Source: Octopus sinensis (lineage: Eukaryota). From it: a stretch of DNA of 64,000 bases. Made by a program: the position numbers and the translations under genes. Positions 1,233 to 56,275 of the stretch are shown one piece after another (position 1 is the first letter of the stretch; each line of letters begins with the position of its first letter). The notes beneath the pieces were generated by a model. The model was not told the DNA's origin. It saw only the letters and a list, made by a program, of their open reading frames with translations, and did no database searches. Location of the stretch: NCBI RefSeq assembly GCF_006345805.1, contig NC_042998.1, positions 13,888,001-13,952,000 of the forward strand, in the 5' to 3' direction.

Positions 1233-3400
1233 TAGTAGCAGTACTCGCAACGATAAGTTTTTGCTTTATTAGGTCGTATGACTTAGTAAATATCGATACG
1301 TAGATTATTTCAATATTATATGGATTACTTTCGACAGTAAAATAGTTAAATGGATATAACAGCATACAAGGTATCACCGACTCTTTTATCTTTCCAAACA
1401 CTGAGCATGACGAAAACGAATCCTTTCCTTCAAGTATGCTACTCCATATAAAAAGAAAGAAAATCAAAGAGAGAAATCCGTCAATATTCTATTGAAACTT
1501 AATGTAAATTTTACGTAACCTGGACATGCTCAATGGTTCAGAAAGAATCCGATCAAATGACTGCGTTTTAGCTAAACACGATGATTTTCTTTTTATTTGT
1601 TCTTCCTGTGCATTTTATGCTTTTGTTCTTGTGTTTTTACTTGTAAGAAATTGATCCTTTGTATTTTAATTGCATTGCACCTCGTTGTTTGAAATAAAAT
1701 TAATGCTGAATGTTATTTTTGCTCTTCAAAAATTTAGGTTCAAACCAGTATTGTCTTCATTAATATTACAGAATTGTAATTCATTAGATCGCTAGTGGTA
1801 GCAATCTCTCTTATACGATGTGGAGGAAAGGGAGTATAACAATCAAGCCTGCACTCTCTTTACCTCTTCTACATTCCATATATTAATTTACTTCATCTCA
1901 TGCACCTTCTAGAATAGAACAATTTAAGAATTTTTAAAATTTAGCGAGATATTACAGCGATGGTGAGAGTACTTGGTTAAATATAAATTTCAAATCTCTT
2001 TAAGGAAAAAGAAGTTGGCAATGAAATCAGTTTAATTATCATATCAATTGATGCATGACATGTGTCATTCTCATACACGTAATTTTACAAAGGACATTTG
2101 TGTGTAACATAACGCTACTATCACAGCCATTGTCAATTCAAAATTTATAATAAAGATTCATATTTTCAGTACCTTCTTCCTTTAGTAAATGTTCCGATAA
2201 ACACATTAACTGCCAGAGTGTTGTAAATTCTATTACCAAGTCTACATCATAGAAAATCGTGATATTCATTTAAAAAATCATACTGAATAATTATGTTCTT
2301 ATATTTGTCTCTATTTAAAAATTTTTTTCTGCTTCACAGGACAGTTTTAAATCAATGAACAACTGATTTTAGATTTGCAATGTTGAATAAAATTCACAAT
2401 CACGTCACAGTCTCTTTTCATTTATATTCAGCTCTTCTTAGACTTGTTTTCAGCAAGGAAAGGACTGGATTTTATTATTTTTATAAATTGAGTTCCTAGG
2501 AAATATGAAGATTTTATTTGTTTTCTTGAGATTTTTACATTGTTCGAGAATATTACGACCACTTTAAAGCAGGGTGGGGTCTTTTTTAGATATTCAGTTT
2601 TATATTTTAACTTTCCAAGCATGAAATTCTGTGTTGGCATAGCGTATGTACATTGTACACAAACATGTCTTCAGAAATAAAAGAAAACATTCGGCTTTCA
2701 GGAACTCTCAAAATTCAATAATCATGCCACCGCCATTTTCTTTATGCATATATATGTACATACCATATTTATTTTCTACGATATGTTTGGGTACAAACAC
2801 ACACACACACGCACACACATACACACACACATAGAAGGGTGTGAGAGAGAGTGGAGAAAGAAGGGTGATAGTGAGAGAGAGAAGGGTGATAGGGAGAGTG
2901 GAGAAAGAAAAGAAAAACAAGGGACTCAACACATTTACTAGCAGCTAAATGTATCCTTATTAGCAATTGCTTGATTCGTATACATGCTATTTAAAGCTTC
3001 ATGGGTTTCTAACAATTCATCAGAACCTAAGCCAGGACGAAAAGTCAGTAAAATTTTAAGACACACCAAGGGCCGAATGAAAGTGTTTTATATAATATTA
3101 ATAATAATAATAGTAACAATAATATTATATATCTGTGTATGTTAAATAACAAACAGTATCGTTTGTAGTTCTATAATTAAGAGATGAGGAATTATTTATA
3201 TTATTTACATTATTTACATTTGACAGATATTTGTCCTCATCTTGTTTGTTGTTAACACAACGTTTCGGCTGATATATCCTCCAGCTATTATCAGGTGCCA
3301 TAGGGAAATTTCGAAACTGTCCACAGACATATGACGTAGTGGTTAAGAGCGCGTGCTACTAATCCCAAGATTTAAGTTCGATTCCAAGCAGTGACCCGAA

Positions 3401-3446
3401 CATCAACAACAACAATAACAATACTACTACTACTACTACTACTAAA

Positions 3447-3512
<66 letters not shown>

Positions 3513-3560
3513 TATAATAATAATAATAATAATTATAATAATAAGAATAACAACAACATC
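3401..3560. repeat. (AAC)/(TAC)/(AAT)n microsatellite inside the palindromic element
   Basis: Direct read; source of poly-Ile ORFs. Confidence 0.95.
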
Positions 3561-3605
3561 GAAAACTACCTTAGGAATGAGAACCCAGGTTCGAAATTTC
3601 CCCAA

Positions 3606-3650
3606 GACACCTGATTAAGGCTGGAGGGTATATCAGCCGAAACGTGTTAA
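3606..3650 (+). ncRNA. Type I hammerhead ribozyme, mutated copy (CUGAUUA core)
   Basis: gacac-CTGATTA-a-ggctg-loop-cagcc-GAAACGT-gtt; the intact version is at 49026-49070. Confidence 0.65.
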
Positions 3651-3802
3651 CAACAAAGATGAGGACAAATATCCGTTAAATGTAAATAATGTAAATAGCA
3701 TATGGTTTATACTTCGTAGCTTGCGGGTGAAGCACGTTCACTTTCATTTTGTTCGTTGTCTATTTTGGTTAATGAGAGTGATGGAAAATGGAAGATTCGA
3801 AA

Positions 3803-11084: not shown

Positions 11085-11440
11085 CATAGGAATAAGGTCT
11101 AAAATCTGTGAGGGTGGGGATTGATTACAACAACGTAAGTACATGACTGATACTTATTTTATTGAACCCGATGGTAAACGGCAGCGAAATTTGAACTCAG
11201 AGCGTAATGACGGACGAAGTGCCACTAGGGTTTTGTCCAGTGTGCTAACAGTCCTGCCGGTTCGCCGCCTTTATGGAAATAATAATGTTAATAATAACAG
11301 CGACGAGGAGACGACAACGACGATGATGATGGTAATGATGATGATGATGATGATGATAAGGAGTCGGTCGATTAAATCGACCCCAGAGCTCAATTGGTGG
11401 TTGTTTCATCGACCCCGAAAAGATGAAAGTCAAAGTCGAA
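11085..11440 (-). mobile_element. Two degenerate SINE B pieces separated by (AAT)/(GAT)n
   Basis: 'atttgaactcagagcgtaa..ttcgccgcct' and 'atcgaccccgaaaagatgaaagtcaaagtcga'. Confidence 0.7.
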
Positions 11441-20946: not shown

Positions 20947-21545
20947 GAGGCGGCGAACTGGCAGAATCGTTAGCACGCCGGTCGAAATGCTTAGTAGTAT
21001 TTCGTCTGTCGTTACGTTCTGAGTTCAAATTCCGTGAGGTCGACTTTGCCTTTCATCCTTTCGGGGTCGATAAATAGAGTACCAGTCTCGCACTGGGGTC
21101 GATGTAATCGACTTAATCCCTTTGTCTGTCTTTGTTTGTCCCCTCTATGTTTAGCCCCTTGTGGGTAGTAAAGAAATCGGTATTTCGTCTGCCGTTACGT
21201 TCTGAGTTCAAATTCCGCCGAGGTCAACTTTGCATTTCATCCTTTCGGGGTCGATAAATAGAGTACCAGTTTTGCACTGGGGTCGATGTAATCGACTTAA
21301 TTCCTTTGTCTGTCTTTGTTTGTCCCCTCTATGTTTAGCCCCTTGTGGGTAGTACAGAAATAGGTATTTCGTCTGCCGTTACGTTCTGAGTTCAAATTCC
21401 GCCGAGGTCAACTTTGCCTTTCATCCTTTCGGGGTCGATAAATTAAGTACCAGTAACGCACTGGGGTCGATGTAATCGACTTATCCCTTTGTCTGTCCTT
21501 GTTTGTCCCCTCTATGTTTAGCCCCTTGTGGGCAATAAAGAAATA
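20947..21545 (+). mobile_element. SINE B: one head + three tandem ~183-bp body units
   Basis: Units start at ~20997, 21180, 21364 (GTATTTCGTCTG); TSD TATATTTTTAACAG at 20933-20946 and 21546-21559. Confidence 0.92.
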
Positions 21546-34850: not shown

Positions 34851-34988
34851 GTCCAACCATATTTTGATCATCGACGACGTACGTTTTTGAAATCGCTAAT
34901 TACTCAGCCTGTGGGTGAGAGACATGTATCGGACAGGTACCATTCGGTCCTATGTGTCATAGCAATTCTATTTTATTTCAGGTGAAGC

Positions 34989-35326
34989 ATGGTACTGTGG
35001 ACGATAGAGTATTGCGTGTTTTCCAACAACAGCTACCTGAGTTTCGGCGCCACTTCAATATTCACAAAAACCAGGCTGTTCTCACCCGTAGCTCAATATT
35101 ACGTTGGTTGAATACAATTCGTACAAGAGGTACACTAATGGAAATGAGACTGGTGGGGGCGCCACGAACGGTACGGACCTCGGAAAATGTGGAACGCGTC
35201 AGACAAGTTTTGATACTGAGTCCGAATCGCTCTGCTTGGAGGAATTTCACTGCACTTGGCATTGGTAATTGATCAGTAAGACATATTTTGCATCAAGACC
35301 TGCATTTCCAGCCGCACAATTTTGTC
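34989..35326 (+). pseudogene. Tc1/mariner-superfamily transposase N-terminal HTH fragment (DUF4817 / rosa-DD41D-like)
   Basis: FRRHFNIHKNQAVLTRSSILRWLNTIRTRG..GAPRTVRTSENVERVRQVLILSPNRSA..LGI..SVRHILHQDLHFQPH. Confidence 0.8.
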
Positions 35327-47932: not shown

Positions 47933-48748
47933 TATGTATTGTAGCATTTTTTCTTTCTCAGGAAGAGCATAAAATGGTTTCATAACGTTACATCAGTAGT
48001 GAATTGTGTTTGGATGTTTGGATGTGCATATGTGCGTGATACCTGGGATTACATATACATGAATCAGATTTTCATGGAACCGTTTTTAAACGCTAAGTAC
48101 AAAGGTGATCAAATATGGCTGATCACCTCGGTTTTGTCATCAAATTCCGTGGTTAGTGCCGTACGAATTATTTGAATTCTGTTAAAAAATGTTTACGGGA
48201 AATGATTAATATATATGTTCTTGAACTTTGCTGTGTGAAGCCTAGCCCATTATTTCATGCGTGTCGTTTATGTGAAGTGCCATATGGTCAAATACATGAT
48301 TTTTAACAACCTCTTTTTGCATTTTGCTGCCTACGGACCTATATATATCGAAAGTAGAGGTAGCAAAGTCGAATTTTGTAGTCAACATTTCTAAAACCAG
48401 GACAGCCTATGCTATATTTATGCACTGGCCTTTACAATGTCCTATCTAAATACGATTAAGATGTTCCGATAGGGTTTGTGTCGATGGTCTTTGCCATGCA
48501 GTCAAACAAGTTTCAGCAATATTGTGAGGCTTTTTCATGTACCCTTTTTCAGTTAATATGCAGGCAATCTAGCTGTGGATCCAACTTATTGTTCTAGTCT
48601 TGTATGAGCACTAAATGAAGAGCCAATCCGAAGAAACCTCCAGACGTGTAGAGACCAACATTTCAGGACCAAGATGCTGCCTACTGGTTACAAAAGGCAA
48701 TTCCATATGATGAGATCCAGACCCTTCCAAATCAACACATTCGCTCAG

Positions 48749-49127
48749 TTCTATATTTAAGAAATGAGGAATTATATACATTATTTACATTATTTACATT
48801 CGACGGATATTTGTCCTTATCTTGTTTGTAGTTAACACAATTTTTCCGCTGATATACCCTCCAGCCTTCTTCAGGTCTCATGGGGGAATTTCGAATCTGG
48901 GTTCTCATTCCTAAGGTGTTGTTGTTGTGAAAGGCGGTTAGCTGGCAGACTCTTTTGCACGCTGGGCAAAATGCCTAGCGGTATTTTATCTTAGGAAAGA
49001 GAACCCAGGTTCGAAATTTCCCTAAGACACCTGATGAAGGCTGGAGGATATATCAGCCGAAACGTTGTGATAACAAAAAGCAAGATGAGGACAAATATCC
49101 GTCAAATGTAAATAATATAAATAATGT
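48749..49127. mobile_element. Second palindromic hammerhead element of the 3169 family
   Basis: Inverted arms; TSD ACATTCGCTCAG at 48737-48748 and 49128-49139; SINE B head fragment 48931-48989 between arms. Confidence 0.88.
49026..49070 (+). ncRNA. Minimal type I hammerhead ribozyme, intact core
   Basis: cac-CTGATGA-a-GGCTG-gaggatatat-CAGCC-GAAAC-GTT-gtg; palindromic ACGU stem III; predicted cleavage after 49066. Confidence 0.8.
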
Positions 49128-49697
49128 ACATTCGCTCAGGTTTATGACCCGTATTGCCTTGGATATAAGCAGATCTAGTATCCACCAGAAACTGACGACA
49201 ATCTATGATTTTGCTGACGGAGACTACTTCTCCTCCTAGTGATCTGATGTCCTTGAACAGGTGGCCCCTATCAGATGTAACTCTAGTTCACGTGCAAAGA
49301 CACTGTTTGTTTTGAGTAATGTCATGGTAACTGAATGACAAAACCGTTGAACAAACACCTTATTTCTAAGTAGGAACAGTTCTTTCCTGCCTCTGGGTAG
49401 TTCTTGGATTTTGCACAAGAAGTTCTTTACATATTTTTTTTGTTTGTTTTTTGCATTTCTCCTGAGGTTTCGTAATGTCGCGGAGGCACAAAGGGTATCT
49501 GATGCATGACATCCAGTGCGTTGTTTATATAACCTGACTTGTCTTCGGTGTCATTTTCCTTGTGTCGTTCTCTTTTTTTTGGGGGGAGGGTCTTTCACAT
49601 GCTGTTGATTCAGATAGCGTCGTACTTTAGAGTGCAGTGTTTCTTTTGTTGCTTGCATTGTAAGTGTTTTAAATTCTGCTGTTCTTGCTATTGTCTA

Positions 49698-50033
49698 TGT
49701 TGTTAGAGCGTCAAGCTTATGATCGTGAGGTTGTGAGTTCGATTTCCGGGCCGAGCTGCGCGTTGTGTTCTTGAGCAAGACACTTTATTTCACGTTTCTT
49801 GAGTTCACTCAGCTGTAGAAATGAGTTTGCGACGTCACAGATACCAATCTGTATCGGCCTCTTTGCCTTTCCTTTGGGTAACATCGGTGACGTGGATGGT
49901 TATGGTTAGGTTTAAGAAGGCCGGTATGCATGGGCTGCTGCTTGTCTTCCATAAAAATCCTTGCCCAGATTGTGCCTGGGAGGGTAACTTTCTAGGTGCA
50001 ATCCCATGGTCGGTCATGACCGAAAGGGGTCTC
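49698..50033 (+). mobile_element. SINE head D, tail as 13507 copy
   Basis: gagttcgatttcc..ttgagcaagacactttatttcacg..ccatggtcggtcatgaccgaaagggg. Confidence 0.85.
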
Positions 50034-50349
50034 AGCTCAGCAGCTGCTTCTCACATTGTACCTTTTACTGCAATCGTTGTGACTGCATTGGCATGCTGTT
50101 GTTAAAATCGCATCTGTGTTTGTGTTGTAGCAGACTTCTGCTGTTGCCGATGGTAAAGTTGGGGCGATGTCAGCAGTGAAGGTCTTCTTTCAGCTTTCAC
50201 TTTCGATGTTGTTGTTGTTGGAAGGAGAAAGTCTCGAAAGAGATTATGGTTTCAATGGTTTTATTATCGAAGCCGTCTATCTTCCACTAACCACCTAGAG
50301 CGGTTATTAGATCTATCTTTGATAGAGGATGTTTTGATACTAGTATATA

Positions 50350-50508
50350 GGCGTAGGAGTGGCTGTGTGGTAAGTAGCTTGCTTATGAATTACATTGTTC
50401 TGGGTTCAGTCTCACTGCGTGGCACCTTGCGCAAGTGTTTTCTACTATAGCCTCGGGTCAATCAATGTGAGTGGTTTTGGTAGACGTGTGTGTTGTGTGT
50501 GTGTGTGT

Positions 50509-50566
<58 letters not shown>

Positions 50567-50745
50567 TGTTTGTCCCCACAACATCGCTTCACAACCGATA
50601 CTGGTGTGTTTACGTCTCCGTAACTTAGCGGTTCGGCAAAAGAGACCGATAGAATAAGTACTAAGCTCACAGAGAATACGTCCTGGGGTCGATGTGCTCG
50701 ACTAAAAGCAGTACTTCAGCGTGGCCACAGTCAATGATTGAAAAT
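50350..50745 (+). mobile_element. SINE A with (TG)n
   Basis: GGCGTAGGAGTGGCTGTGTGGTAAG head; CORE-like ACCTTGCGCAAGTG. Confidence 0.88.
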
Positions 50746-50979
50746 GTATTTCCTGTTCTACTGGAATCAAAATCTCTGCTGCCATATCAACCCAATTTTC
50801 TCTGTTGTATTATTTTAGTTCTATCTTTTTTCACCACTTACCAGAAACTCAGTTCTGGTGGTATGTTTTAGAGAAATCTCCACTTTACTGCCGACAATGT
50901 GCTTTCGGACTAGTAATCCCGAAATTATGATCATGTCATGCAAAACCAATGTCTGGCTATGTTTCTTAAACAAACTTCA

Positions 50980-51141
50980 GGCGCAGGAGTGGCTGTGTGG
51001 TAAGTCGCTTGCTAACCAACCACATGGTTCCGGGTTCAGTCCCACTGCGTGGCATCTTGGGTAAGTGTCTTCTGCTATAGCCCCGGGCCGACCAATGCCT
51101 TGTGAGTGGATTTGGTAGACGGAAACTGAAAGAAGCCCGTC

Positions 51142-51214
<73 letters not shown>

Positions 51215-51439
51215 GTATGTGTGTGTTTGTGTGTCTGTGTTTGTCCCCCTAGCATTGCTTGACAACCGATGCTAGTGTGTTTACGTCTCCATCACTTAGC
51301 GATTCGGCAAAAGAGACCGATAGAATAAGTATTGGGCTTACAAAAGAATAAGTCCCGGGGTCGATTTGCTCGACTAAAGGCGGTGGTCCAGCATGGCCGC
51401 AGTCATATGACTGAAACAAGTAAAAGAGAGTAAATGAGT
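50980..51439 (+). mobile_element. SINE A, full length
   Basis: Complete head, core, microsatellite and tail. Confidence 0.92.
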
Positions 51440-51970: not shown

Positions 51971-52193
51971 CTACAGCACGAGAAACAAACAAAAGAAAAT
52001 GTTAAGTTCATTATGCTTCTGGTCAAATAAGCTACAGAATACAAAATTATAATGAACAAAAATACGTTTCCATAACGAACGATACGACATGAACATTAAC
52101 GGTGCCTCCAGAACGCGTTTTCGTCATTAAAATCAAAGAACAGTAACAGCAGCAGCGGTAGAGGGAGCAGCAAAACCACTACCAACAATAATC

Positions 52194-52812
52194 ATTTCTA
52201 TTATAAGCACAAGGACCGAAATTTTTTGTGGGGAAGAGGGGATCAGTCGATTAGATCGACCCTAGTACACAACTGGTACTTAATTTATCGGCCCCGAAAA
52301 CAGGAAAGGCTAAGTCGACCTGGGCGGTATTTGAACTCAGAACGTTAGCGCCATACAAAATACCTATTTCTTTACTACCCACAAGGGGCTAACCACAGAG
52401 GGAACAAACAAGGACAGACAAATAGATTAAGTCGATTATATCGACCCCAGTGCGTGACTGGTACTTAATTTATCGGCCCCTAAAGGATGAATTGCTAAGT
52501 CGACCTCGGTGGATTTGAACTCAGAACGTAGCGGTAGACAAAATACTGCTAAGCATTTCGCCCGGCGTGCTAACGTTTCTGCCAGCTCGCCGCCTTTCAC
52601 AACAACAATAATAACGAAATAATGATGATAATAATAATCATTTCTATTCTAGGCACAAGGCCTGAAATTTTGAGTAGGTGACAAGTCGATGACATCAAAC
52701 CCCAGTATTACACTGGTACTTAATTTATCGACACCGAAAGGATCAAAGGCAAAGTCAGATGAAATGCCGCTAAGTATTTTGCGCGGCGTGCTATCGACTC
52801 TGCCAGCTTACC
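52194..52812 (-). mobile_element. SINE B head with two tandem bodies (52194-52597) plus a further degenerate copy (52640-52812)
   Basis: Repeated gtcgatta..atcgacc..ggtacttaatttatcg..gtcgacct..tttgaactcagaacgt blocks. Confidence 0.85.
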
Positions 52813-52925
52813 AAATAATAAAGATGATGATGATGCTGATGATTATTGTGGTGATAACAATAGCAATATCTTCATCAGCTACAAGCCACATTAATTATAT
52901 TTCCTGTGTCTTGTATTTTGCGTGA

Positions 52926-55039: not shown

Positions 55040-56275
55040 TCAGGTCATCCCATAAGTTCTGTCCGGATTTTGAATCAAGAAATTAAGTGATCAAATGTTA
55101 TATTTAATTGAAATTTAATCATCAATGTACTTTCCTTGATTATCTATGACTTCCTTCCATTTTTTACAAGCTTTTTAATCCCATCAATGTAAAAACTCTT
55201 TTGGTTTCAAAGCGAAGAACTCTGAAATGTCAGTTTCGACCTCCTCCTGGTTTGCAAAAGTTGTGTCCCCCAAACGAGTCTGTAAACTACGAAATAAATG
55301 GTAGTCTGAAGGAGTAAAGTCGGGAGAATAAGGTGGATGAGGAATTTTTTCCCAGCCAAGCTTTTCGATCTTCTGTGATGTGATCTTTGCAGTGTGGGGA
55401 TCACGCATTCTCCTGATAAAATATCACTCCCTTTCGATTCACTGAAGCAGGTCCTTAACGCTCTACTTGCTGACAGTAGACTTTAGGATTGATTGCTGCA
55501 TTAGGTTGTAACAATTCAAAGTGAATTACTCCTTTGTAATCCTACCAGATAGAGATAAGAACCTTTTTTTTTCCATGAAGTTCTCATCTCGGTTGTGTTT
55601 GAGCTTTTTTCCCTTTGACCAAACCACTGTTTACGACGTTTAACATTTCGATAGAAGATCAATTTTTCGTCACCAGTCACAAGTCTATCTAAAACGGGTG
55701 AAATGAGTTCGCGAGAATGGAGAGAATAGCAGATGTCAACTCGGGATTTGCGGTTGCTTTCGGCCAATTCAGGATGCACCCATTTTCCAAGTTTAGAAAC
55801 CTTTTCAAGATGTTGACGATGAACAGTTGCCAATTCTTCAACGGATAATGCAGGATTTTGTTCCTGTAATACCTCAAGGAGCTTATCATGAAACTCAACG
55901 TCCTTTTTGATCTTCATCTTCATGGCTGAAATCTCCAGTTCTGAATTATGCAAACCAGCTTCTGCAAGTTCTTTCATTCAAGCATTCTTTCCAATAAACT
56001 GAGTGTATGTTTCGAGTCGCTTCGGCTGCAGAGTTTCCTTTTTGGTACTCATAAAGCATTATGTGCTTCGAATGCTCTTTGGATCCTTCCATGTTAGAAA
56101 GGGTGTTAATCAAAGAAATTTTAAATCTTTTATTCTGCAAAATAATATTTAATTAGTTTAAATGTACACAAATGCCTAAATATAATTTTTCATTCCATTC
56201 GTCATTATAAAATACTATTAAATTTCATTCAATTTTAAAAAAGTAAAATCGAAGAGAACTTATGGGATGACCTGA
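55040..56275 (-). mobile_element. Full-length mariner DNA transposon (1236 bp)
   Basis: TIR TCAGGTCATCCCATAAGTTCT / AGAACTTATGGGATGACCTGA; TA TSD at 55038-55039 and 56276-56277. Confidence 0.95.
55115..56092 (-). pseudogene. mariner transposase, frameshifted
   Basis: MEGSKEHSKHIMLYEYQKG.., WVHPEL (WVPHEL), VTGDEK, HPPYSPDFTPSDYHLF, WKEVIDNQGKYIDD*. Confidence 0.93.

Follow-up and report, generated by a model that had tools for sequence, protein, structure and literature searches.

Penelope-like elements (PLEs) show, in the accessible text of the studies describing them, an inverted 5'-truncated copy and a 30-40-bp tail at one end (PMC8557442), together with 8-10-bp target site duplications (TSDs) and unrelated host DNA captured between the pLTRs (PMC3846280). 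Work with a purified PLE protein showed cutting and extension of both strands, with two RNA start sites that bound the tail (PMC11167929, accessible part). How PLE integration is completed and how the inverted structures originate is treated as an open question in the available portions of PMC8557442 and PMC11167929. The minimal metazoan PLE hammerheads described in 2014 have an extra base between positions 9 and 10.1, a G10.1-C11.1 pair and a palindromic 15.2-16.2; the available sections predict that they work only as dimers, report weak activity in vitro, and note pairs on opposite strands 100-700 bp apart (PMC4209133). Animal retrozymes are argued, in part of a preprint, to be non-autonomous PLE derivatives (bioRxiv 10.64898/2026.07.22.740005). 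Excerpts of further papers show that hammerhead SINEs are known in schistosomes (PMC6765202, PMC2770079), that the exchange of SINE modules is usually explained by template switching (PMC4758252), and that L1 offers precedents in nine two-RNA insertions and three with locally templated filler (PMC11702581). No description of the octopus family analysed here, or of a tRNA-headed PLE-driven SINE, was found in a literature search that covered the main text of open papers. The accessible text of PMC10886601, PMC6962438 and PMC4824008 likewise holds nothing on the octopus family, and repeat libraries in supplements or Repbase/Dfam may already name it.

The stretch of DNA analysed (hereafter the window) comprises 64,000 nt of Octopus sinensis contig NC_042998.1. 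At 48737-49139 it carries a palindrome of about 400 bases that likely represents, judging by its sequence, insertion by a PLE enzyme of a non-coding hammerhead-bearing repeat pair. Its centre holds the head of a SINE; the name SINE-B is the label of the initial annotation. The features are as follows.

48737..48748, left TSD copy: exact 12-mer, 9-12 bp with element-end overlap.
48749..48777, minus strand, PLE-type tail of 28-29 nt, on the inverted arm only: the 3169 copy has a counterpart, again on its inverted arm, and the P0004 translation reads through it.
48778..48917, minus strand, inverted (left) arm: hammerhead broken.
48918..48930, plus strand, junction (GTT)3-GTGA: 48919-48930 equals the SINE flank at 52597-52608 (minus strand).
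48931..48987, plus strand, SINE-B 5' head: degraded A box at 48943-48953, T4 runs at 48953-56 and 48984-87.
48988..49127, plus strand, direct (right) arm: B-box-like motif at about 49008-49018.
49026..49071, plus strand, minimal type I hammerhead in the right arm: core intact by motif parse, features as in the available sections of PMC4209133.
49128..49139, right TSD copy: exact 12-mer.
52540..52608, minus strand, candidate donor: nearest SINE-B head with upstream flank, T4 and B box.
3169..3700, plus strand, second family copy: inverted arm with tail at 3169-3319, A/B-box head at about 3325-3398, (AAY)n, direct arm.

The initial annotation had described a clean 12-bp TSD and a single insertion of both arms, and the analysis supports both descriptions. 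The 12-mer at 48737-48748 recurs exactly at 49128-49139 and at no other position of the window, on either strand; its edges overlap the element ends by 1 base at the start and 2 at the end, so the real duplication is 9-12 bp. A single insertion of the two arms is supported by this TSD and by the same architecture at 3169. The inverted arms (48774-48915 and 48990-49131) are 142 nt long and 87% complementary, with a spacer of 74 nt, and the insertion as a whole is only about 380 nt. The sequences flanking the palindrome have no repeat copies elsewhere in the window. The 48737-48748 TSD bears a loose resemblance to the beginning of the element's tail; the TSD candidate at 3169 bears none.

Within the window, BLAST finds the repeat only in this palindrome and in the inverted pair at 3169-3700. 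Both hammerheads of the 3169 copy are broken, and its TSD candidate (3157-3168 and 3701-3712) is a degenerate 12 bp, placed in the same register, with 3 mismatches, which about 1% of random pairs equal. In both window copies the inverted arm is 28-29 nt longer than the direct arm, in the same register. The annotation had placed a different Pol III head at the same point of the 3169 copy and called it tRNA-like. The position is indeed similar and A- and B-box motifs are present; the structure differs, since the 3169 head lacks T4 and some 170 nt of (AAY)n lie between it and the core, and the tRNA label finds no backing from ARAGORN (0 tRNA genes) or from Rfam, which gave no tRNA match on the head. 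This head may represent the native 5' end and promoter of the family and not a captured piece. An antisense-frame protein search for a second head-plus-core copy of this type found none. The 5-nt filler at the junction of the 3169 copy was also checked for a nearby source; this gave only scattered matches of 9-11 nt, which we take, without a control, to be chance. An 83-codon open frame at 3363-3614 (plus strand) comprises the 3' half of the head, (AAY)n read as poly-Asn and the core, and ends at the hammerhead TGA; it recalls the Asn-rich inserts in rotifer Penelope ORFs described in part of PMC3846280, a resemblance that is probably incidental.

Copies of the repeat are also visible in protein databases. 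The arm repeat is translated in two named Octopus bimaculoides proteins, and the named O. bimaculoides protein P0004 reads through the tail. A profile of three arm translations hit 77 database proteins, which a crude split divides into 40 of this family and 37 of a sister family; these are spurious ORFs over repeat copies of the two families. A miRNA or protein-coding role is rejected, the database "proteins" being spurious translations of repeat copies. An antisense arm runs into a sense arm in 10 of the 77 (3 of them in the nearer group), and an eleventh case was recognised by eye. None of these 10 inverted junctions has a SINE-B head or a 3169-type head between the arms, in a sample that is biased because stop codons interrupt one to three reading frames of the heads. 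A single translation (P0043) has a weak SINE-body match, outside any inverted pair. The sister hammerhead family (P0012, P0017, P0018, P0036, P0070 and others) is built of head-to-tail units of about 42 codons, in arrays that resemble retrozymes, and forms inverted pairs as well; the window showed no copy of it. P0008 is an inverted pair of the palindrome's own family, with the tail apparently on both arms. An exact scan for a 22-nt motif in prokaryotic genome contigs gave 0 matches.

Mobilisation by a PLE enzyme is likely, as judged from structure, and no autonomous partner was found. Pfam matches to RT or GIY-YIG domains number 0 among all 169 window ORFs of at least 65 aa that passed the low-complexity filter, and the element is therefore taken as non-autonomous; a protein search for a longer PLE ORF starting with the arm translation also found none, which is weak evidence. 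The locus has a minimal type I hammerhead in the terminal repeat (by motif parse; unscored by Rfam), an inverted 5'-truncated copy (in 2 of 2 window copies and 10 of 77 translations), a one-end tail whose 28-29 nt fall slightly short of 30-40, and a short TSD (the exact 12-mer here, the degenerate candidate at 3169). The arms lie head-to-head on opposite strands and not as the head-to-tail tandem units of a non-LTR retrozyme. A MITE or other DNA transposon was rejected, given the unequal ends (the tail), arms that are both 3' ends of one repeat, and varying truncation points.

Only one of the four arms in the window retains an intact hammerhead core, the right arm of this palindrome. It can be parsed in order as stem I, CUGAUGA (49031-37), an extra base that is the bulged A49038, a 5-bp stem II (49039-43 with 49054-58), and GAAA, CG and UU (49059-66), with a predicted cut site after U49066. 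Stem III is a loopless ACGU palindrome, so a dimer would be needed. The "intact ribozyme" of the initial annotation is thus correct for the core and overstated for the whole: besides the loopless stem III, A49070 replaces the T of the other three arms and leaves a stem I mismatch, with only 3 contiguous pairs. The cleavage triplet GUU is weaker than GUC. Computed energies are -5.8 kcal/mol for the monomer forced into the active fold vs -10.7 kcal/mol for the minimum free energy fold, with a stem I probability of 0.38, and -3.5 kcal/mol for the intermolecular stem III. In a computed read-through RNA the arms pair with each other and the pairing probability of stem II is 0.0. On the opposite strand, the left-arm hammerhead has lost the closing pair of stem II, and its stem III CG has become AA. 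Rfam detected no hammerhead family at the locus at E up to 10, and over the whole window returned microsatellite noise.

The SINE-B head that the initial annotation saw at the centre is confirmed by nhmmer (E 7e-11, with a profile built on 6 window copies), and the centre also contains upstream flank that had been missed. The head has the same sense as the right arm and an intact 5' end, and the captured piece terminates in a T4 run, where Pol III might stop; through microhomology the head may reach 48991. The right arm starts at the left arm's core start or at most 2 nt away. If the right junction is placed after the T4 run, the two starts coincide with 1 mismatch; placed otherwise, the junction has 2-nt microhomology. 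The same core start is seen in six database copies, several of them directly preceded by microsatellite-like residues. A TSD belonging to the centre itself, which would have spoken against its arrival with the arms, was sought; only a 5-mer and 6-mers with one mismatch were found, none of them credible, and a CTWAGG pair was discounted because it derives from the arms' own self-complementary start.

The candidate donor is the copy with its head at 52596, the nearest of 11 SINE-B copies to the centre (3665 nt). Its head and the centre have 12 exact upstream flank bases in common, as against at most 3 for the rest of the 11 other heads; a 12-nt flank match occurs in 1 of 66 SINE-B head pairs, the next best being 5 nt, and the 12-mer is present in the window only at these two places. 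The head alignment used 8 heads other than the centre, 3 partial heads being left out. Among the 8, the 52596 head alone has a T4 run in columns 54-57, the point at which the captured piece ends, and only it has a B box ending in the canonical C. It also differs least from the centre (11 differences; 13-19 for the other copies). The flank and T4 matches are features noticed after the fact, and the T shared by the centre and the 52596 copy is a CpG change. The GTT run makes up 9 of the 12 flank bases and may be the left arm's own microsatellite; because the left arm may supply it, only GTGA counts as independent flank evidence. A preference of SINE-B heads for positions after such runs (4 of 10, background 7%) also weakens the flank match. 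T4 can stop metazoan Pol III, which starts 10-20 nt before the A box.

Divergence complicates the choice of donor. The body of the 52596 copy is 11% diverged (11/98) vs 1/58 for its head (p 0.03), and on the strength of the body the copy is likely old enough to have been the donor. Private changes number 9-10 in the centre, whereas the 52596 head has a single one (binomial p 0.02 or 0.01), an asymmetry that the clean head softens without removing. Five of the 11 departures of the centre from the majority recur among the copies at 11271, 20947 and 52817 and are absent in 52596; 4 of these 5 are CpG-type or subfamily states. Three centre changes (columns 33, 38 and 45) perfect a 9-bp hairpin at 48956-48981 and are common to the 11271 copy, which would reflect either an older subfamily state or quasi-palindrome correction.

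SINE-B copies in the window fall into two subtypes with different 3' halves. The region 52100-52820 (minus strand) is a composite locus in which a short-type copy (head near 52817) has an ATT/GTT tail that adjoins the 52596 copy; inside the latter lies a second unit, near 52365, and its end resembles that of the short type. Within the copy at 20947-21410 (plus strand) there are tandem units, each about 185 nt long and restarting at head position 47-49. Other repeats nearby are a broken mariner transposase at 55187-56152 (minus strand; Pfam HTH_48, E 6e-16, at 55949-56152), a Tc1-like fragment at 34919-35269 recognised by eye and with no Pfam match, and, also by eye, other tRNA-like-headed SINE families at 49706-50040 and 50350-51430, the latter broken by (GT)n and (AT)n.

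The best explanation, which we consider somewhat probable, is that the centre was copied from the neighbouring SINE at 52540-52608 during a one-step insertion of PLE type. A PLE protein acting in trans would cut both strands about 9-12 bp apart, and each 3' end would prime reverse transcription of element RNA, an outer start site giving the tailed arm and an inner one the arm without tail. The right-arm cDNA would then stop at the core start and jump to a template from the neighbouring SINE, and the cDNA ends would be joined through the GTT/AAC microsatellite. The template was possibly a short Pol III transcript starting a few bases into the flank and ending at the 52596 T4, a tentative choice, with the same stretch as DNA close behind and slightly more doubtful; the apparent donor being the neighbouring genomic copy together with its flank, DNA is almost as likely a template as RNA. 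The initial annotation had proposed template switching to Pol III RNAs at the inversion point as a recurring event and a route to new ribozyme-SINE chimeras. Such a switch is compatible with the 48737 copy. A general exchange of Pol III heads is not borne out: there are two cases with unlike structures, and 0 of 10 other junctions in a biased sample. The locus does not demonstrate a route to new ribozyme-SINEs either: its A box is degraded, T4 runs occur twice ahead of the ribozyme, and a dimer partner is lacking. The distance from the SINE A box to the B-box-like core motif is 66 nt in the chimera vs 64 nt in SINE-B; the degraded A box and the T4 at 48953 and 48984 leave it short of a functional Pol III SINE. 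The copy is predicted to be inactive because T4 stops would precede the ribozyme, no dimer partner exists and the arms pair over the ribozyme.

The extra divergence of the centre can be accounted for in other ways. A reverse transcriptase switch or ligation to the Pol III RNA of a SINE-B copy located anywhere in the genome, with a coincidental match to the neighbour, would suit the sense polarity, the intact 5' end, the 3' end at a T4 run, the 2-nt or imperfect 5-nt microhomology at the junction, and a centre diverged beyond the 52596 head with states in common with older copies. Switching to small RNAs is an accepted route of SINE module exchange (PMC4758252, in part), and RNA ligation is cited for U6-L1 chimeras in the available text of PMC11702581. 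This origin is nonetheless unlikely: it needs a chance match of both flank and T4 to the nearest copy, a SINE head lies at 0 of 10 other inverted junctions (in the biased translation sample), and the hammerhead cut lies about 76 nt downstream of the junction, which ribozyme ends therefore did not make. Ligation at ribozyme-made ends was rejected on the same distance. Had the SINE head instead been fused to the core already in a source copy elsewhere and been carried along as a 5' transduction, the additional divergence would be explained, and the box spacing is near native; the chimeric source would perhaps be a small subfamily driven by the SINE A box and the core B-box-like motif, and PLEs do carry host DNA between pLTRs (PMC3846280, in part). 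No second such junction appears in the window or the 77 translations, apart from the weak P0043 match, and the T4 runs would halt Pol III before the core. Such a source is considered distinctly improbable.

A later SINE-B insertion into the GTT run of the left arm, followed by a deletion that took its 3' part, the element head and the microsatellite, seems distinctly improbable. SINE-B heads do often follow ATT/GTT-type runs (4 of 10 by a loose pattern, against a background of 7%), the right junction has microhomology, and the 3169 copy displays what the deletion would have removed. The spacers of long inverted repeats are moreover deletion-prone. Two events would nonetheless be required, with a deletion ending at most 2 nt from the core start; the centre is diverged more than the arms, not less (11/59 vs 6% and 11%); and the flank match would be left unexplained, with no TSD of the SINE's own. 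An assembly or sequencing artefact in the form of a fold-back chimera would draw on the difficulty of assembling inverted repeats (PMC8557442, accessible text). It is highly improbable, given an exact TSD and an architecture that recurs at 3169 and in database translations. The two arms are unlike at 19 of 140 positions, and the insertion is therefore old and not a fold-back artefact.

The palindrome architecture is already described for PLEs, and the locus is a tidy instance, probably a dead one, of a known type of event; a single copy of this kind has no evident function. If the local donor is real, the fillers at junctions preserve a record of what a PLE reverse transcriptase is able to pick up before end joining, and a family with very many copies would let the genome alone distinguish RNA from DNA capture. 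A bolder reading, and a rather unlikely one, is that an octopus tRNA-headed SINE is moved by a PLE enzyme that jumps to T4-ended Pol III transcripts of SINEs a few kb away. The palindrome would then be a snapshot of ribozyme-SINEs gaining heads from chromosomal neighbours, a foreign A box now standing ahead of a hammerhead, at a distance of 66 nt from a B-box-like motif. With a tRNA-headed SINE driven by a PLE, the range of known SINE partners would grow.

Among described systems, the Penelope/Poseidon PLEs (Pen2a and Pen3a of Adineta vaga, PAc of Anolis) are comparable in their inverted 5'-truncated repeat, one-end tail and short TSD, as well as in the hammerhead in the terminal repeat and the foreign sequence between repeats described in parts of PMC3846280, PMC11167929 and PMC8557442. 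Unlike them, the octopus palindrome has no RT/GIY-YIG ORF, and its tail is 28-29 nt vs 30-40. With the minimal PLE hammerheads and animal non-LTR retrozymes, as far as the available text describes them, it has in common a type I core with an extra base 9/10.1, G10.1-C11.1 and a palindromic 15.2-16.2, opposite-strand pairs 100-700 bp apart, and the character of non-autonomous pLTR derivatives. It differs from them in having no head-to-tail array, and so no cis dimer, in its GUU triplet and in its damaged stem I. The 3169 copy, with a Pol III-type promoter upstream of a hammerhead, resembles the Schistosoma Sm-alpha and Sj-alpha SINEs (parts of PMC6765202 and PMC2770079); those are tandem repeats with a working ribozyme, whereas in octopus the copies are scattered as inverted pairs that have PLE tails. 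L1 5'-inverted insertions and U6-L1 chimeras (PMC11702581, in part) similarly have filler between two cDNA ends, taken from a second RNA or nearby DNA. Unlike in the L1 cases, the two octopus arms are copies of one 3' end, and a PLE is presumed to supply the enzyme. Octopus tRNA-derived SINEs were reportedly described by Ohshima and Okada in 1994, and SINE-B is like them in having a tRNA-type A box, a B box and many copies.
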